Below are positions 2,263 through 27,874 of a DNA stretch of 43,019 bases, one piece after another. How positions within the stretch are numbered: the first letter of the stretch is position 1; every line of letters starts with the position of its first letter. Under the pieces are notes generated by a model. That model was given only the letters and a program-made list of their open reading frames with translations, was not told the origin of the DNA and ran no database searches. The stretch comes from a virus. Taxonomy: Duplodnaviria > Caudoviricetes. Location: positions 1 through 43,019 of IMG/VR virus record IMGVR_UViG_3300049893_001226; one strand, 5' to 3'. Made by a program: the position numbers and the translations under genes.

Positions 2263-2475
2263 TTAATTTGAAAATAGCTCTGGCCAAATAGTGTTTAAGC
2301 TCTCCCTTGACCTATTATCAGGTAGCGCTCTAGGTGGGTCAGCTTCCCAGTTTCGGTAGGTTGACATGCTAACCCCAAACAATCTACTCGCCTTCTCTTG
2401 GCTTAAAGGTCTGCCTAGTTGGTCGGTTTTACTTGCTCTTACTGATCTTAGTTTTTCACTGAAAGTTAGGCTCAT
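2263..2475 (-). CDS. Cro/CI-type (XRE) helix-turn-helix protein
   Basis: 70 aa, LSQEKASRLFGVSMSTYRNWE motif. Confidence 0.8.
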   Translation of the reverse strand: MSLTFSEKLRSVRASKTDQLGRPLSQEKASRLFGVSMSTYRNWEADPPRALPDNRSRESLNTIWPELFSN

Positions 2476-4201
2476 ACATTAACCTTTCTTCGCTTGCTTT
2501 GCGAAAGCTGTGCATATTTGTCCCGTAGGGGTCTGTAATCGTGCCATAGGACAGATATTTCTCATAGAGTTCTTTTGCCTTTTCGTACTTGTTTTGGAAG
2601 TAGTAATATTCTGCTAATAAAAAGGTAGCGTCTGGTTTGTTGTTGTCAAATAGATAATCGTCTACATCGTGTTTCCAAAACTCTACCCCAGCCCATTGAT
2701 AGTGGGCTAACGCTATTGAGTATTTAATATGGTCGGCCTCCATGCCATCGGCAAGTTCCAAAGCTTTTTCATAATAGTCTAGTGCTGGCTCAAAATTCTC
2801 TTGGCTGTGGTATTCCTTCCCAAGCTGGTAAAACTTATTGCCTGAATCTTCCTCCAACTCAAGTAATCTTATATTCCTATCGCTTTTCTGTTTGTTTGCC
2901 TTTGGGTCACTATATCCAGTGTGTTCAATTTCTACACCGTCGGCTAAAACATAGGTAAGCCCTAATTCATTGGCTGTTTTTATGTAGTTTTCATGTACTC
3001 GGTTTTCCCACTTCAACCCATCAACTCTAGGAAATAATCTAGGCTGTTCCGCTGTGAATGTAGTCCCGTGGCCATGGTCTACTATCTTAAAACCAAAGTG
3101 ACATTTTTTCTTTGCTGTTAGTGGCCCTGGCTTGTCTATGATTGCCCTAATTAGCTCTCCCATGCCCTCGGGTATCTTATCATCGTCGTCTACCCATAAA
3201 ACCCAGTCACCAGTACATTTAGATAGAGAAAAGTTTCTAGCTTCTGCAAAGGAATCATTCCAAGGGGAGTGGTGTATTTTTATTCCTGTAAAATTTAATT
3301 CTAAGCTTTGTTGCTGTGTTGTTACGATTACTATTTCATCTGCAAATTTTAAACTTCGGCATAAATCCATTAACTTTTCGCTAATATCCCTTACAATCAT
3401 GCTAACACTTAATTTCACTGGCTTAATCGGTTGGGTGTTAATCATATCAAAACCCCACAAATCCACGGCTTCGGGTGGGTTGCCGTCAAACATCTTCATT
3501 AACTTTTCGATGTAGATATTTTCAGTTTGCTTAATTAACCTCTCACTATCGGGATTTTGTTTAAAGCTCTCGTGTCCATAGTGGTAAACATAAACGCCCG
3601 TTGCTATTACCATTTTATAGCCCAATAGAGACAATTTTAGGGAGTAGTCTAGGTCATCACACCCCAAGAATAAATCATTATCAAAACCGCCCAATTCGGT
3701 AAATACCTTCTTTGGGGTCATTAAAAAGAAACCGATTAGCATTTGGCTTTCAAGGTATCGGCCACCCATTCCCCTTAGTGCCATCACTGCGTTTTTCTTA
3801 TAATTGTCATATTGTTGCATGTGATTGCCCGCATTTTGCAATCCTGCCACAAAATTGGATATAGGCCCCACGGCTCCGATTTTATCAGATACTTCTAATC
3901 CCTTGGTCATTTCCTCGCACCAAAATTCACTTACTATCGTGTCGGGGTTAACAAAGATCAGAATGTCCCCTTTGGCGTATGTTGCTCCATAGTTTGCCCC
4001 TCCTGAATATCCTAGGTTCTTTTCGGGAAAATAAACCGTACATCCATTTAGTTTGGTGTCCATCTCTCGGCTGTTATCAACTATGATAATCTCGTAAGTA
4101 GACTTAGGCGGGTGTTTTTGGATTGATTTAATACAAGCCTCCAACTTATCGAAAGCCTTGTAAGCAACTATGATTATTGAGTATTTCATACCTTTAAACA
4201 T
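2456..4201 (-). CDS. Glycosyltransferase: two GT2 domains plus TPR repeats
   Basis: YSIIIVAY..IIVDN..NLGYSGGANYG..FVNPDT..GGFD..DDLDYS; second domain LSVSMIVRD..WNDSFAEARN..WVDDDD..RVHE; TPR-like FYQLG/FLLAE. Confidence 0.9.
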   Translation of the reverse strand: MFKGMKYSIIIVAYKAFDKLEACIKSIQKHPPKSTYEIIIVDNSREMDTKLNGCTVYFPEKNLGYSGGANYGATYAKGDILIFVNPDTIVSEFWCEEMTKGLEVSDKIGAVGPISNFVAGLQNAGNHMQQYDNYKKNAVMALRGMGGRYLESQMLIGFFLMTPKKVFTELGGFDNDLFLGCDDLDYSLKLSLLGYKMVIATGVYVYHYGHESFKQNPDSERLIKQTENIYIEKLMKMFDGNPPEAVDLWGFDMINTQPIKPVKLSVSMIVRDISEKLMDLCRSLKFADEIVIVTTQQQSLELNFTGIKIHHSPWNDSFAEARNFSLSKCTGDWVLWVDDDDKIPEGMGELIRAIIDKPGPLTAKKKCHFGFKIVDHGHGTTFTAEQPRLFPRVDGLKWENRVHENYIKTANELGLTYVLADGVEIEHTGYSDPKANKQKSDRNIRLLELEEDSGNKFYQLGKEYHSQENFEPALDYYEKALELADGMEADHIKYSIALAHYQWAGVEFWKHDVDDYLFDNNKPDATFLLAEYYYFQNKYEKAKELYEKYLSYGTITDPYGTNMHSFRKASEERLMYEPNFQ

Positions 4202-4749
4202 CCTATTCCGTACTTGTCACTAATTTCATACAAAACCGTAAACTTGTCTTTTAGCATCTCCCAAAGCTCTAGGGGGCCTTGGCATTCTGCAATGTCGTGA
4301 AACCATACGATAGTTCCCTTTTTTAAATAGGGCTGTACAAGTGCCCAGTCTAAGCGTACACCGCAAGGGCTGTGATCTCCATCGATACCGATTAGGTCGA
4401 ATTTTACATTCAGGTCACTCAGAAAGTTTTCTGCTTCTTCGGAGTGGCTGTCTCCCAAAAACTCTTTGGTCTCTGGCATGTTTGGTTTGTTTAACTCTCT
4501 CCAAACATTTCTCCTGGGGTGTTTGTTTATGTCTATAGAATAGAACTTTTCAAACCTTATTTTATCGTAAATAAACCTCTCAGCACCACCGCTAGCAGTT
4601 CCTATGCTTAGATAGGTTTTTATTGGATACTCTTGGAGTGTTTTAACCAACCCAGCAAATTCCTTGGGGTCTTGTTGGATGTGGTAGCCTCCTACATTTG
4701 GGCCAAAAATGGCATCGTCAAGTCCAGCGTCGATGATTTCCTGGATCAT
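4186..4749 (-). CDS. Class I SAM-dependent methyltransferase (Methyltransf_24-like)
   Basis: YLSIGTASGG, GDSHS, FDLIGIDGDHS, LKKGTIVWFHDI. Confidence 0.85.
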   Translation of the reverse strand: MIQEIIDAGLDDAIFGPNVGGYHIQQDPKEFAGLVKTLQEYPIKTYLSIGTASGGAERFIYDKIRFEKFYSIDINKHPRRNVWRELNKPNMPETKEFLGDSHSEEAENFLSDLNVKFDLIGIDGDHSPCGVRLDWALVQPYLKKGTIVWFHDIAECQGPLELWEMLKDKFTVLYEISDKYGIGCLKV

Positions 4750-5318
4750 AATTTAATCATCCCGCACCATTTACCCTGGTACACCTTGCCGTATCGGTTC
4801 CTTAACTCGTTAAAAAGTTTTTTGTCCGCCTCATTGGTAAAATTAATCAGTACGCACCCCTTAGGATTGATCTTGCATATACCGTAATTAGGTTTGGCTC
4901 CCTCTCCAAAAGTCTCTTGGGGTTCTTTGCCTCCAAGTATAAACTTCCAAAGCTCGCTGGGTTCTAGGGCATAGCGTCGGGAATCAATTGAGATAATATC
5001 ATATGATCTTACTATCTCCCGTAGGAATTTCTTTTCCTTGGCCTTGTCGTTTTGTACATCCATTAGGTCGATGTGGTTAATGTTTGTTTTTTCTGATAGA
5101 AACCTATGCCCTCCAGTCTTTGCACTGTCCAAAGCTAGGTAACTCCTACAATCAAACTGCCTCACCAATGATATAATTGACGCAATTTCCTCTGGGGCAT
5201 ATTGGATATTATAGCCCTTGGTTCTGTCTTTATAGCCATTTGCTACTGTGATGTATTTCTTATAAAGCTCTGGCCGTTCGATTCCAGCCTCTATTGCTTG
5301 CTCGATTAAGCCCGCCAT
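4746..5318 (-). CDS. Degenerate methyltransferase-like paralog of 4186-4749
   Basis: GYNIQYAPEE vs GYHIQQDPKE, YLALDSAKTGG, YDIISIDS, INPKGCVLI; canonical DGDH motif lost. Confidence 0.55.
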   Translation of the reverse strand: MAGLIEQAIEAGIERPELYKKYITVANGYKDRTKGYNIQYAPEEIASIISLVRQFDCRSYLALDSAKTGGHRFLSEKTNINHIDLMDVQNDKAKEKKFLREIVRSYDIISIDSRRYALEPSELWKFILGGKEPQETFGEGAKPNYGICKINPKGCVLINFTNEADKKLFNELRNRYGKVYQGKWCGMIKL

Positions 5319-5776
5319 ATTACCTTTCCTTTCAGTTTAGGGTCTTCCCATACTATCCTGATTATTTTCTTTACCTTGCCCCACCTGTACAAATTGATTA
5401 TCGTACACTCAATATTTGGCACGCCGTCCACCTCTTCTAAGCTCCCTGCAATATTCCAGCTCCACCCAAACCACTTGAAAATGATTACTTTTTGGCTCCA
5501 CTGCACAATTTGATATAATAATGGTGCAATACCTTTAAGTTCTTCATCGACTCGCTGGCTTATTTTGGCTAGTCGGTACTGGTTTTCAATCTGTAATCTC
5601 TTTTGCTCATCCCGTTCTTTGGTTAGTTCCTTAACTGCCTTAAACCCGTTTGCTCTAGCCTTCTCTCGGTTCATTCCTGTCTGGATATGGCCTTGACTGG
5701 TAAGGTGAGGAATAAGCCCTTTCATTTCCTTCAGAAACTTCTGAGGGTTCGGGGCGTTCTTGGTTGGTTCCATCAT
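5306..5776 (-). CDS. Hypothetical protein
   Basis: 156 aa ORF overlapping the TerL stop (ATGA coupling). Confidence 0.65.
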   Translation of the reverse strand: MMEPTKNAPNPQKFLKEMKGLIPHLTSQGHIQTGMNREKARANGFKAVKELTKERDEQKRLQIENQYRLAKISQRVDEELKGIAPLLYQIVQWSQKVIIFKWFGWSWNIAGSLEEVDGVPNIECTIINLYRWGKVKKIIRIVWEDPKLKGKVIWRA

Positions 5777-11385: not shown

Positions 11386-11502
11386 TCTGTCGCTTTCTCT
11401 CTGTCTTAGGTTAATTACTGGGCTTGCCTACCAATTAAGGTGCGACAGAGACGGCTTGACGGTCGAAAGCGGTTTGCAAACGGTTTGACCTGCCCAGTAA
11501 CC
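11386..11502 (-). ncRNA. Structured 5' leader / candidate C4-like antisense RNA
   Basis: Closing stem GGTTACTGGGC/GCCCAGTAATT; internal TCTCTGTCGC complementary to GACAGAGA and GCGACAGA just upstream of ATG 11382. Confidence 0.55.
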
Positions 11503-11646: not shown

Positions 11647-11693
11647 GTTGTGGAGTTATACGCCAACATTCGTATATATCGTAGTTATAGGCA
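11647..11693 (+). mobile_element. attI-like recombination site at the head of the cassette array
   Basis: Core GTTATAGGCA (11684-11693) is the exact reverse complement of TGCCTATAAC (12302-12311); no long hairpin; extra GTT boxes upstream (GTTGTGG 11647, GTTATAC 11655). Confidence 0.6.
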
Positions 11694-11696
11694 ACC

Positions 11697-12362
11697 CTAA
11701 AAGAGCCTCTGCTGTGAAATTGCCTCATTAAACCTTTTATCCATTGTTTGACAATAATTTTCATCAATTTCAAATCCGACAAACTCAAAGCCGTTTCTGT
11801 AACAAGCTATACGACTTGAACCACTACCCAAATGAGTATCTAATATTTTTGCACCAGCTTCAAGTTCAGCAAACTTTAAGCAAAATTCATATAGTGATAC
11901 AGGCTTTTGGGTTGGGTGTATTTTATTTGTTTCAGCAGTTACAACGTGTTTGCTATAAATCTTTGCAGGTTTTTGAATACTCGACCAAGCAAATTCACAC
12001 ATTGCACTACTAAAATCGTAAGGCTGTTTTTTATCCCATATTAAAAAGCCTTGTGATTTCGGCAAATCAAAGTAGTTCCCACCCCAAATGATTTGATTTT
12101 TGCTTACCCTAAAAAGTTCTGTAAAATATTGCATTTCAGGTATGCTCATATCCCAATTTTTCTTTTCTTGCTTTTGCCTAAAAGGGTTGCTTGATAAGCC
12201 TATTCCGTATGGAGGGTCTACCAAAGCCAAATCAAAGTATTTATCAGGGTAGTGTTTCATACCCTCTACACAATCCATATTATAAACAACCGAAGAAGGG
12301 CTGCCTATAACATTGCATTGGCAAAATGGGGGCTGATGTAATTCTATTAAGCTATTGTTCAT
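11697..12362 (-). CDS. DNA methyltransferase (N4-C/N6-A, beta class), cassette 1 gene
   Basis: MDCVEGM, LALVDPPYG, IIWGGNYF, HPTQKP, ILDTHLGSGSS, GFEID. Confidence 0.92.
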   Translation of the reverse strand: MNNSLIELHQPPFCQCNVIGSPSSVVYNMDCVEGMKHYPDKYFDLALVDPPYGIGLSSNPFRQKQEKKNWDMSIPEMQYFTELFRVSKNQIIWGGNYFDLPKSQGFLIWDKKQPYDFSSAMCEFAWSSIQKPAKIYSKHVVTAETNKIHPTQKPVSLYEFCLKFAELEAGAKILDTHLGSGSSRIACYRNGFEFVGFEIDENYCQTMDKRFNEAISQQRLF

Positions 12363-12435
12363 AATTCAACTTTTGTTTTTTAATTTGGCTGTGGTGCTAA
12401 AATGCCCCCACTTCGCCAATGCTTCAACGTTGTGC
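12305..12435 (+). mobile_element. attC-like site 1 (131 bp)
   Basis: CTATAAC-attGCATTGGCaaaaTGGGGGC...GCCCCCActtcGCCAATGCttcaac-GTTGTGC. Confidence 0.8.
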
Positions 12436-12441
12436 GTAATG

Positions 12442-12918
12442 CTAAGAAACAGCATCGTGCATAGGAATTGCCAATCCATCTCTAATCATATCCAACGCAT
12501 CAAAATGATGTTCTAACAATCTTTTTGTAACAACAAATGGTGCTCTATTATGCCAATATGCCGTTCCATAACTTTTATATTCTTTCCAATATGCTTTAAA
12601 ATTAGTGTATCCAAAAAAGCTGTTATGAAAAAAATCTTCTTCGCCGTTAAAATCAATTTTTAATGTCATAGCATCATCAATTGGTCTTAATATTGGCTTA
12701 CAAAATTCAAAGAAAAAATCTGCGTTTTCAGGCGTTAGAGTTTTTTCTCTAATTTCATTTGGATTTGGTGCGTTTTCAACAACATCACCCAATCGATATT
12801 GCCCTTTAATATTGTAAGGCAAATAAAATGATAATCTTTCTTCTTTTGTCATTGTTTTGATTATTAAAGCACTAGGCACAACAGCGGGTTTACAAAATTC
12901 TGTATTTTCTTGACTCAT
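12442..12918 (-). CDS. Hypothetical phage protein, cassette 2 gene
   Basis: 158 aa, YLPY..KPILRP..LLEHHFD..LAI pattern recalled from Bacteroidota phage proteins; AAGGAG RBS lies within the attC loop. Confidence 0.75.
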   Translation of the reverse strand: MSQENTEFCKPAVVPSALIIKTMTKEERLSFYLPYNIKGQYRLGDVVENAPNPNEIREKTLTPENADFFFEFCKPILRPIDDAMTLKIDFNGEEDFFHNSFFGYTNFKAYWKEYKSYGTAYWHNRAPFVVTKRLLEHHFDALDMIRDGLAIPMHDAVS

Positions 12919-12956
12919 AAATCTCCTTTAACTTCGTAAACCTGCAACCGTTAATA
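12876..12956 (+). mobile_element. attC-like site 2 (81 bp)
   Basis: GCACAAC-aGCGGGTTTACaaaaTT...AActtcGTAAACCTGCaacc-GTTAATA. Confidence 0.78.
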
Positions 12957-13024
12957 AAACCATTCCCAGAGTCACGGGCAAGCCTTACGGACAGTACCCG
13001 CTCACTCATCGAGACAATGATAAT

Positions 13025-15749: not shown

Positions 15750-16463
15750 TTGGATATTCTGCTTAATGTTCTCAGCACTTGGTTACATGGTAGTTATAAA
15801 ATACATTGTGAGCGGTCTATGATGCACCCAATAATGAAAGCTTGGATTCTATCGGATTATGTATATTTTGATGAAGAAGTACATAACAAATTACCCATGG
15901 AATTGAAGTGGGTCGCAACGCTTCGCCACGGTTCTGATAGGTGCTTTATCTTTAAGGATAGCGAAAGTCTACACATAGTTTTTAGGGGGTCGGATGATTT
16001 TTGGGATTGGATATCAAATGCCGACGCTGGACTATGGGGCCAGGAACACGATTCAATTTCTGAAAGTTATGAGAGTTTTTCTGGTGACATATCTCATATC
16101 GCGAAACACCATTTAAATTTGGACTTTGGTATATATGGACACTCCCGAGGCGGTGCTATGGGGACATTTTGCGCTGAGCATTTATCTATAATCAAACCCT
16201 TATCTTGTATAACTTTTGGTGCGCCCGCAGTGTATCGAAAAGAAGGTCGAGATCATTATAATAGGTTACCCATAGACCATACAAATATCTTTGTCCGTGG
16301 GGACATTGTAGCTACATCCAAATTAATTCACCTGGCAGGGTTTAGGCATGTCGGGAAAGAGGTAGTTTTGCCAGCTTCTTTTTTAAACTTATTGGCTTAT
16401 TTTAGGGTAAAAGCACACCTTCGGGATACCCTGGATAAGGCAGTAAAAAAAAGATGGAAATAA
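15750..16463 (+). CDS. Class 3 lipase-family alpha/beta hydrolase
   Basis: IVFRGSD..DW..N, GHSRGGA nucleophile elbow, TFGAP, GDIV, FRHVG, C-terminal His; start codon uncertain. Confidence 0.85.
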   Translation: MDILLNVLSTWLHGSYKIHCERSMMHPIMKAWILSDYVYFDEEVHNKLPMELKWVATLRHGSDRCFIFKDSESLHIVFRGSDDFWDWISNADAGLWGQEHDSISESYESFSGDISHIAKHHLNLDFGIYGHSRGGAMGTFCAEHLSIIKPLSCITFGAPAVYRKEGRDHYNRLPIDHTNIFVRGDIVATSKLIHLAGFRHVGKEVVLPASFLNLLAYFRVKAHLRDTLDKAVKKRWK

Positions 16464-25812: not shown

Positions 25813-26498
25813 GTTTTTAGTACTCCTGTTAAAAATCCAGTACCTGAATAAGTAAACGTCCAAGTGTTCGTACCGTCCGCAATGGTTGAAATTCTATCGG
25901 AACTATCATATGTTTTTGTGATTGTTTTTAGTGTTGCCCCTACCAATTTAACCAGCCCGCCAGTTTCCAGTCCGCTTGTATAGGTATGGGTTAACTCATC
26001 GTATTTTAAAGTATGTAGCCCCGCGTCGGATATATGAGTATCTACCGCCGTGTGTGTAGTTGACCCACCGTTTGCAAAGGTTGTTAGTTCGGTATTATCT
26101 GCGCTTGTCAAGTGGTAGTATTCCCCAGCCGTACCACCCTGTAAATCAGATCTGTTATTATGCAATACTGAGGCATCCGTAAAATGTATTGAGGCATCCG
26201 CCCTGTGGCTAATTGAGGAAGTTCTTTCGCTATCTAGTTGGGTGTGTGTTGCGGTTCCGCCGTTTAAAAATATGACCGCCTCGGCGCTGTCTGCACTGGT
26301 TAAATGGTAATACTCCCCAGTTGTTCCGCCCTGTATGCCTGTGAGGTCATTGTGGGCAAGGGAAGCATGGGCAATGTATGATTTAAGAAGAAGTCTGGTC
26401 TGTTTAATATCATTATCAAGGGAGTCAAACCACTCTAGCCAGTTCTTTGTAAAGTACTCTCTGTAAGTGTCGAAAGGTGGGATAGATGGCCGTCTCAT
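25809..26498 (-). CDS. Virion protein with internal repeats
   Basis: Two HN....IQGGT.GEYYHLTSAD repeats and H..DA..H motifs typical of fibre shafts. Confidence 0.65.
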   Translation of the reverse strand: MRRPSIPPFDTYREYFTKNWLEWFDSLDNDIKQTRLLLKSYIAHASLAHNDLTGIQGGTTGEYYHLTSADSAEAVIFLNGGTATHTQLDSERTSSISHRADASIHFTDASVLHNNRSDLQGGTAGEYYHLTSADNTELTTFANGGSTTHTAVDTHISDAGLHTLKYDELTHTYTSGLETGGLVKLVGATLKTITKTYDSSDRISTIADGTNTWTFTYSGTGFLTGVLKT

Positions 26499-27874
26499 TC
26501 CTCACCTTTTTGCTGTTGGTATAACATCCAAGGGCCTACTGGGGCAAGTGCTTTTAATATGTTAGGGTCTTGGGGGTCGAATGTGCCTTGGTTTCCTGTG
26601 GCGGATTTTATTTGGGTGGGGCTAAAAGCGATAACAGTATTACCAAGTAATGAAGGCCCTGAACCGTTATCTTTTATATTTTTAATAATTACGCCATCGT
26701 ATTTATTAGATTTTTTAGCCTCTTGCGCAATTTCGTTTACATTGTATTTTTTATTTTTAAAGTCAACATCAAACCAAGAGCCACTTTTCCCGTCAACAAT
26801 TAAAGGGTTTTTTAAAGAAATGAAAGATGGTATTATATTAGCTTTTTCTTTATACTCTCCATTAACTGTTTTAGTGTATCCACCCGCCACACTTGGTTTA
26901 CTGCTAAAAAAATGCAATCCTTCACCAGCCTCTTTCCATCTTTTATTTCCCGCTTTTTTATTATCAAACTCATCAAAGTCAATATCCGTACCATGATAAA
27001 CCACTAAAGGCTTACCCTCTTCGTCTACCACCTTGCTATCACCAAACCAGTTTTTGAAATTGGGGTTGTCAGTTATTGATGGTTTTGGCCTATAAATGTA
27101 CTCTTCTCCCATAGGTTCATTCATGTCGTCTAAAATTTCGCTTGCCTTAACTTTTTCCTCTATTATGTGTCCATTTCCTGCGTAATCTTTGGCAAGTTGT
27201 TTGTTAGTTGTAACAAAATCTCCCTTATTTATTTTGCTTTGGTTTTTTGGGGCGCCCCTGTAAATAGTAATGGTTTCATTTGGGTTAATTTTCATTGTTT
27301 TGTCAAGTGTTGTAATATTTTCTCCCAAATCGGCGATATACCTAAGTTCTGGATTATATTTTGTGAAAACAGTTCCTGTTGGGTTTACGCTAGTTACAAT
27401 ATTTTTACCAACCTTTTTAAGCCCTCCCAAGGCTAATCCACCTACTGCCATAGCTTTACCTACTGGGAATAAATTCTCTGCGTCTAGTAGGTTCTCTAGG
27501 CCAAATCCAACCATTCCGGCGGGGCTTCCTTTAAAAGGGCTTTCGCTTATTCCACTTCCACTGTATTGCATTGGTTTGGTTTGGTCTGGGCTATACTCTT
27601 TTTGGCTCAATCCCAAATTACCCGCTATTTCTTTTCCGCTCACATCGGGTACTTCTTCGGTTACTGATTTTGCTAGTCCCTTAAAAAACTCCCAAGGCTT
27701 ACCTGTCTTTATTGCTTCGTTTGTGGCGTATCTAATCGGTTTGGCTGTGTTGTCATCAAGGGTCTTTAATGCACCTGAAAAACTACTTGGAAACATAGGT
27801 TCAAAGTCTCTGGTTGCTCCCAAAGATCGTTTGGTTTCCTCTAGTTTCCTTTTCTTGTAGTCTTCCATGCTCAT
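26495..27874 (-). CDS. Probable ejected protein with two ADP-ribosyltransferase-like domains (polyvalent-protein type)
   Basis: ITIYRG..GDFVT...A..YA..EEYIY, then NFKNWFGDSKVVDEEGKPLVVYHGT..FFS..NPL..YDGVII..IAFSPTQIKS. Confidence 0.72.
   Translation of the reverse strand: MSMEDYKKRKLEETKRSLGATRDFEPMFPSSFSGALKTLDDNTAKPIRYATNEAIKTGKPWEFFKGLAKSVTEEVPDVSGKEIAGNLGLSQKEYSPDQTKPMQYSGSGISESPFKGSPAGMVGFGLENLLDAENLFPVGKAMAVGGLALGGLKKVGKNIVTSVNPTGTVFTKYNPELRYIADLGENITTLDKTMKINPNETITIYRGAPKNQSKINKGDFVTTNKQLAKDYAGNGHIIEEKVKASEILDDMNEPMGEEYIYRPKPSITDNPNFKNWFGDSKVVDEEGKPLVVYHGTDIDFDEFDNKKAGNKRWKEAGEGLHFFSSKPSVAGGYTKTVNGEYKEKANIIPSFISLKNPLIVDGKSGSWFDVDFKNKKYNVNEIAQEAKKSNKYDGVIIKNIKDNGSGPSLLGNTVIAFSPTQIKSATGNQGTFDPQDPNILKALAPVGPWMLYQQQKGEE

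Follow-up and report, generated by a model that had tools for sequence, protein, structure and literature searches.

We found that the genome of a tailed virus, here called the window (43,019 nt; IMG/VR record IMGVR_UViG_3300049893_001226, positions 1-43,019; Duplodnaviria; Caudoviricetes), carries an array of two gene cassettes and no tyrosine recombinase of its own. The best explanation is probably an integron-like system run in trans by an XerA/IntI-like tyrosine recombinase that lacks the I2 insert. In this system, cassettes move as GTT-bounded units, hairpins are joined to different genes at AAC, arrays adjoin I2-less recombinases, and the genes in phages are inverted.

The virus record is rated 100% complete. 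It is circularly permuted inside a P22-like portal gene and contains terminase, primase-helicase and ERF genes. The leftward replication module begins with the array, which lies immediately left of the point near 13000 where gene direction switches. At its left end is an AT-rich sequence (11655-11690, +; CGTATAT-N-A|GTT) that would serve as a double-stranded, attI-like docking site. Cassette 1 (11685-12429, +; 745 bp) is a mobile unit with the same ends at GTT cores in other phages. It holds an N6/N4 DNA methyltransferase gene of 221 aa (11697-12362, -; PF01555, E 1e-14) and the attC-like hairpin site 1 (12309-12431, +; 123 nt, AAC...GTT), recognized by motif geometry, fold and family covariation. 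Cassette 2 (12430-12950, +; 521 bp), whose gene body recurs in phage L364, holds gene 2 (12442-12852, -), which encodes 136 aa from a conserved ATG at 12852 or 158 aa from a hairpin ATG at 12918 and has no known family and no Pfam match. The attC-like hairpin site 2 (12880-12952, +; 73 nt) was recognized by motif geometry. With two sites and no enzyme in the genome, the arrangement resembles a CALIN in layout. Two points were absent from the original prediction: the left end of the array is the attI-like site, with no hairpin there, and both genes are on the minus strand, inverted relative to the integron convention, so that neither runs from its left core toward the attC as in an attC cassette, and in each the first in-frame ATG (12362 and 12918) falls within a hairpin.

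Several other features of the window were observed. Left of the array, just upstream of an HNH-like gene, lie a 26-nt inverted repeat (11398-11451) and, within 11398-11498, the nested pair TTACTGGGC/GCCCAGTAA. A gene for an ADP-ribosyltransferase of polyvalent proteins (26495-27874, -; PF18760, E 2.5e-31) is located among virion genes, and its product is possibly delivered into the bacterial host. A glycosyltransferase gene with TPR repeats and a Methyltransf_24 gene (2456-5776, -) lie between terminase and portal, and a Lipase class 3 gene (15750-16463, +; PF01764) is found in the rightward accessory region.

The original prediction described two hairpins sharing the geometry AAC-10-CAAAAT...ACTTCG-13-GTT, and a search of both strands of the window located this motif only at 12309-12431 and 12880-12952. 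The match between each unit's own left and right cores (10/10 for 11684 versus 12302; 13/15 for 12429 versus 12868) was reproduced, as were all coordinates and counts, including the unit lengths of 745 and 521 bp with one gene each, and the AAAA/CTTC mismatches are indeed A·C on the plus strand and G·T on the minus strand. Like attC, the sites are imperfect hairpins bounded by AAC and GTT, with the bases flanking the 12429 core departing from GTTRRRY. Site 1 has an asymmetric spacer, two G·T wobbles on the bottom strand and an outer stem without a bulge. The spacers of 5 nt and 8 nt are within the range of attC spacers. In silico, the expected preference for a bottom-strand fold was seen for site 1 (bottom -20.1 kcal/mol, z -3.0; top -16.2, z -1.7) and not for site 2, which folds weakly and better as the top strand (bottom -5.2, z -0.3; top -7.1, z -2.0). 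A loose hairpin finder returned at least two sites in 4 of 100 shuffled windows; thus, the evidence from the window alone is modest, suggestive rather than decisive, and comparative data carry the case. No Rfam family matched the hairpins (a single match with E 0.57 was ignored), and a promoter and terminator scan gave 15 weak promoter matches against 6.9 expected, to which we gave no weight, and no terminator. A pattern search of viral contigs detected no true second copy of hairpin 2; one candidate, L587, was dismissed as a chance match because it does not have the AAC/GTT geometry.

In GTDB, an anchor-only pattern search yielded 127 stretches (about 210 estimated), most of them from Bacteroidota among the 80 matches listed, and in IMG/VR it yielded 125 (about 330 estimated). 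At stem positions left free by the pattern, pairing was 0.82 in 121 viral hits (0.45 with shuffled partners) and 0.75 in 132 genome hits (0.47 with shuffled partners), with several base-pair types per position; relatedness among the hits inflates these values, and the two mismatches were fixed by the search pattern. In the 121 viral hits, pairing keeps its register through positions 6-13 and 18-23 with no extrahelical base in that span, indicating that no base is extruded up to position 23, beyond which a bulge could still lie. In 38 units between consecutive sites, a unit's own left and right cores match at 6.24 of 9 positions, compared with 3.9 when cores are swapped. The Mucilaginibacter arboris chromosome has an array of 17 sites in 11 kb, and further long arrays were found in two MAGs, one of Sphingobacteriaceae and one of Bacillota. 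At L233 (G004) and L236 (G005), such long arrays occur together with an I2-less recombinase in genomes that use Shine-Dalgarno signals, one being a Bacillota MAG; the system is therefore not confined to Bacteroidota. In a Pelobium MAG (L238, 6700-8900), identical hairpin sites recur every 507 bp beside a recombinase fragment, representing either a tandemly amplified unit or an assembly artefact.

The absence of a tyrosine recombinase from the phage genome, as originally claimed, was confirmed by zero PF00589 matches in the complete record, and neither tblastn with four proteins nor an HMM profile of phage recombinases revealed a recombinase remnant in the window. In four of five array-bearing genomes, a tyrosine recombinase of 367-427 aa is found at the head of the array and is co-oriented with it. 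These enzymes score 185-212 bits against the TIGR02249 cut-off of 265, their best NCBIfam match being archaeal XerA, and no match above this cut-off exists in any of the five genomes. The alignment of an array-head enzyme with IntI4 (2A3V) falls into two pieces that skip about residues 207-245, the roughly 40 missing residues corresponding to I2. The chromosomal enzyme has an N-terminal extension of about 95 aa, the phage form is about 270 aa long and likewise lacks the I2 insert, and the catalytic R-K-H-R-H-Y residues are invariant in these recombinases. The original prediction was thus supported in its integron-like mobile cassettes, breakpoints at GTT cores and need for an enzyme in trans, but not in naming an integron integrase as that enzyme, since the arrays are headed by recombinases below the TIGR02249 cut-off and without I2.

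The link between enzyme and sites is one of adjacency. In 80 metagenome loci of the long enzyme, 46 sites lie downstream on the same strand versus 2 on the opposite strand (21 of 38 loci with enough DNA). Among long chromosomal homologs, only 5 of 17 have a downstream same-strand site within 1.5 kb, and opposite-strand sites occur in 4. No site of family size was found downstream of the shorter homologs of 274-300 aa or of two XerD-like controls. For the phage form, 73 of 80 loci (seven were dropped as duplicates or for having no upstream DNA; near-duplicates remain) have 209 sites upstream on the opposite strand versus 6 on the same strand and 18 downstream, and an upstream opposite-strand site is present within 2 kb in 47 of 60. 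Only 6 of 83 viral loci found by pattern have a recombinase nearby (4 of 36 among those with full 5 kb flanks). We also noted 29 records (H1-H29), mainly from cultured Polaribacter and Cellulophaga phages, with recombinases 35-43% identical and annotated as integrase; these phages could be laboratory models if they have arrays. Two or three tandem repeats of about 45 bp are located between the chromosomal recombinase and the attI-like site at L234 (12310-12440) and L235 (12070-12150), and are possible, putative accessory binding sites.

In most phage recombinase loci, a conserved AT-rich site ending in GTT is found 30-60 nt from the recombinase start codon. A matrix built only from 58 such sites beside phage recombinases ranks 11684 fifth among the 1639 GTT positions of the window, and between first and fifth among 701 GTT[AG] positions with narrower settings. 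The window has a single CGTATAT-N3-6-AGTT (at 11671), a motif shared by 4 of the 58 recombinase-adjacent sites, and a similar CGTATAT motif is present at the heads of the chromosomal arrays at L234 and L235. The score is modest, and where loci have no recombinase, no more than 7-9 of the 31 left cores lie above the 95th percentile of controls. The sequence around 11684 is thus modestly suggestive of an attI-like target.

We then investigated the mobility of cassette 1. The cassette recurs in two of the 80 viral loci kept for the methyltransferase, L001 (97.8% identity) and L002 (89.8% identity), in both cases with unrelated flanks and with homology that, under strict scoring, stops at the GTT cores. 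A contig from run X4 spans 11684-12442 with yet another set of flanks, while a contig from run X9 has flanks identical to those of L001 and was therefore not counted as independent. In the recombinase-bearing phage L508, a cassette with the two ends of cassette 1 is located at the attI-like site, and relatives with recombinases 94-95% identical to that of L508 diverge exactly at that GTT. These two observations tie cassette 1 to the recombinase. Precise gain or loss had been predicted at G|TT; the junctions do fall at the GTT cores, where the three shared bases are the limit of resolution for a crossover. Searches for empty-site relatives of the window phage with the HNH-like neighbour (13 loci, 38-58% identity) and the primase-helicase (7 loci, 36-38% identity) gave distant phages only, and annotated phages showed only methyltransferase-level similarity (33 records, none covering 80%). 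Among the assembled contigs examined, which for run X1 came from about half of the run so that gaps in coverage carry no weight, no circle junction joined at the cores was seen. Run X1, which may be the source of the window, has a contig of the window phage whose end falls precisely at 11686, hinting at a branch at the left end of the array.

Hairpin 1 provides the start codon and the first 18 or so codons of the methyltransferase gene, the first in-frame ATG (12362) being inside the hairpin; the stretch from the AAC core to the enzyme's first conserved strand has no ATG, and most homologs align only from residue 24-31 or thereabouts. Near-identical copies of hairpin 1 are found in other phages. 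The enzyme would shield phage DNA from host restriction. Its C-terminal sequence Q-Q-R-L-F (11697-11714, -), which we take to resemble a beta-clamp binding motif, is retained in L001 and L002.

The gene body of cassette 2 (12427-12883) is 88.6% identical, from GTT to AAC, in phage L364, the sole viral homolog of gene 2, where it is followed by a different hairpin; this is the one observed case of the same gene with a different hairpin. All 11 homologs of gene 2 are 131-139 aa long, and the four retrieved all start at the inner ATG. Pairwise comparison of 142 viral sites gave 262 matches (at least 88% identity over at least 60 nt). In 104 pairs, the hairpin alone is shared, with 88-100% identity and unrelated DNA on either side, while five matches comprise gene and hairpin ending at GTT and one comprises a gene ending at AAC; the remainder are whole (3), other (1) or internal partial matches (148). 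The classes breaking at GTT and at AAC indicate that hairpins are modular at both ends. Judging from these sequence comparisons, hairpins appear to have been exchanged between genes with breaks at the AAC core, and exchange at this end is not predicted by the canonical integron model.

The orientation of the genes distinguishes phage from chromosomal arrays. At 95 viral sites, the gene is inverted in 84, forward in 1, absent in 9 and at an edge in 1, whereas in long chromosomal arrays 21 of 23 sites have a forward gene. Genome loci outside these arrays are mixed (23 forward, 20 inverted, 15 with no gene and 2 at an edge), and misbinned phage contigs may account for the inverted ones. At sites next to phage recombinases, inversion was seen in 48 of 59 and the forward orientation in none. 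A hairpin ATG with an open path to AAC is found in the frame of the gene in 49 of 69 cases, compared with 29 of 138 for the other frames, and this excess indicates that phage hairpins often supply the start codon. We propose that phage cargo would have to point in the direction of the replication operon around it, so that the genes would be read out of the hairpin, with the hairpin often giving the start codon.

Translation signals suggest that cassettes cross between host groups. A Shine-Dalgarno motif precedes 19 of 50 window genes (background 7.8%), compared with 22 of 731 genes in the other viral loci that bear sites and none of 9 genes in each of L001, L002 and L364. Bacteroidetes are reported to lack Shine-Dalgarno signals (PMC7797042). 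On the basis of this contrasting usage, it is probable that cassette 1 has moved between phages that infect different host groups. A weak pointer to the host comes from the capsid protein, whose only named homolog (68%) is on a Fibrobacterota MAG contig. In the loop of hairpin 2, AGGAG (12927-12923, -) lies 4 nt before the in-frame ATG at 12918, while a motif of this type precedes an in-frame hairpin ATG in only 1 of 56 cases in other viral loci. Weighing against a refitted Shine-Dalgarno start, this is a single case, its spacing is short for the window phage, and no comparable motif precedes the start of the methyltransferase.

As to mechanism, the enzyme would be supplied in trans by another phage or by the host. 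It would pair the double-stranded attI-like site (11684) with a folded bottom-strand hairpin and exchange one strand within GTT/AAC, as IntI does. Recombination between two hairpins would excise a circle, whose own matching cores would rebuild a site. Because the sites have no extrahelical bases and the enzyme has no I2, the folded top strand might also serve at AAC, where it would swap hairpins between genes. More tentatively, the I2-less recombinase may act on hairpins at both ends, so that any gene lying between GTT and AAC could gain or trade a hairpin and, in phages, the hairpin would be a swappable translation start. If so, this would be a route for making new cassettes, and a cassette from a Bacteroidota phage could be refitted with a Shine-Dalgarno start for another host group, as hairpin 2 suggests.

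Alternatively, the array might be an ordinary CALIN, with canonical attC sites and a host IntI acting in trans. This is unlikely, even though the AAC/GTT cores and matching cassette ends are present, IntI1 is active on 5 of 6 phage-borne attC sites with methyltransferases among the phage cassettes (PMC9892861), and IntI also uses degenerate attG targets (10.1101/2022.09.11.507474). The enzymes at the heads of these arrays are not IntI, the five genomes yield nothing over the TIGR02249 cut-off, the stems have no extrahelical base through position 23, and integrons are very rare in Bacteroidetes and Firmicutes by IntegronFinder 2.0 (PMC9024848). About equally improbable is that the hairpins are self-inserting MITE- or REP-like elements and that homologous recombination between copies shuffles the genes. 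The 104 pairs with only the hairpin in common (88-100% identity) agree with such insertion, and MITEs are common to Bacteroidota and their phages (PMC11602168). This model does not explain why the left core of a gene matches its own right core and not a duplicated target, why the arrays are polar, with a GTT beside a recombinase as their anchor, or why cassette 1 moves precisely with no hairpin at its left end. Unlike MITEs, the hairpins have no duplicated flanks, and their ends are asymmetric and tied to gene-specific cores.

The same enzyme could instead act on double-stranded or cruciform sites by two strand exchanges, like Xer or Cre, in place of a folded single strand that replication resolves. 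Archaeal XerA is its best NCBIfam match, and the extrahelical bases and I2, which block the second exchange in integrons (PMC4792948), are both missing here. We give this somewhat less credence than the two preceding accounts, since unrelated arms keep compensatory pairing across loops of 50-190 nt, which argues that the folded shape is conserved and not the duplex sequence. It is very unlikely that the hairpins are RNA structures regulating translation or termination, with mobility incidental. The phage mRNA strand is the more stable strand and often has the start codon, but the same asymmetry is on the template strand in chromosomal arrays, DNA breakpoints fall at the cores, and no Rfam family is matched. 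The precise DNA junctions largely refute RNA as the primary role, and the hairpins may have a secondary RNA role.

The window holds a real, mobile two-cassette array that is CALIN-like in its working and departs from integrons in its enzyme, its gene orientation and its lack of extrahelical bases. Integron chemistry is considered to depend on both the I2 insert and extrahelical bases. A widespread cassette system that has neither would extend integron-type shuffling to Bacteroidota, some Bacillota and phages, groups reported to be nearly integron-free, and would give phages a precise trade in methyltransferases and other accessory genes. There is no reliable model of cassette genesis (PMC4792948); hairpin exchange at the AAC end bears on this question and makes genesis testable. 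To these points the window adds a near-identical cassette common to phages with different translation signals. In the largely open-access literature covered, we found no account of I2-less cassette systems or of inverted phage cassettes.

Cassette arrays had been originally described as normally residing on chromosomes and plasmids, but phage CALINs were already published: Qi et al. 2023 (PMC9892861) reported 17, with methyltransferase cargo and the IntI1 activity mentioned above. The present array resembles integron cassettes and these phage CALINs in its one-gene units, imperfect AAC/GTT hairpins, matching ends, GTT breakpoints, absence of an enzyme in cis and methyltransferase cargo. It differs from integron cassettes in its inverted genes, often starting in the hairpin, in the two G·T wobbles that replace the extrahelical base, in the associated non-IntI enzyme and in an apparent hairpin exchange also at AAC. 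The six phage sites cloned in PMC9892861 are short and lack the CAAAA/CTTCG box, unlike the sites here; some other CALINs of that study could belong to the present site family. With regard to the 'integron-like' tyrosine recombinases and XerA of Smyshlyaev et al. 2021 (PMC8138268), that article calls the insertion essential for integron function and, in the passages covered, makes no connection between cassette arrays and members without the insertion. Isolated cassettes at attG (Loot et al., 10.1101/2022.09.11.507474) likewise occupy degenerate GTT sites remote from the integrase, an arrangement also seen in most phage loci here, but involve IntI and canonical attC. The chromosomal members of the family recall sedentary chromosomal integrons of the Vibrio type with homogeneous attC: their hairpins are nearly identical and form long, polar arrays next to a recombinase and an attI-like site. 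Their enzyme, however, points in the direction of the array and has an N-terminal extension and no I2.
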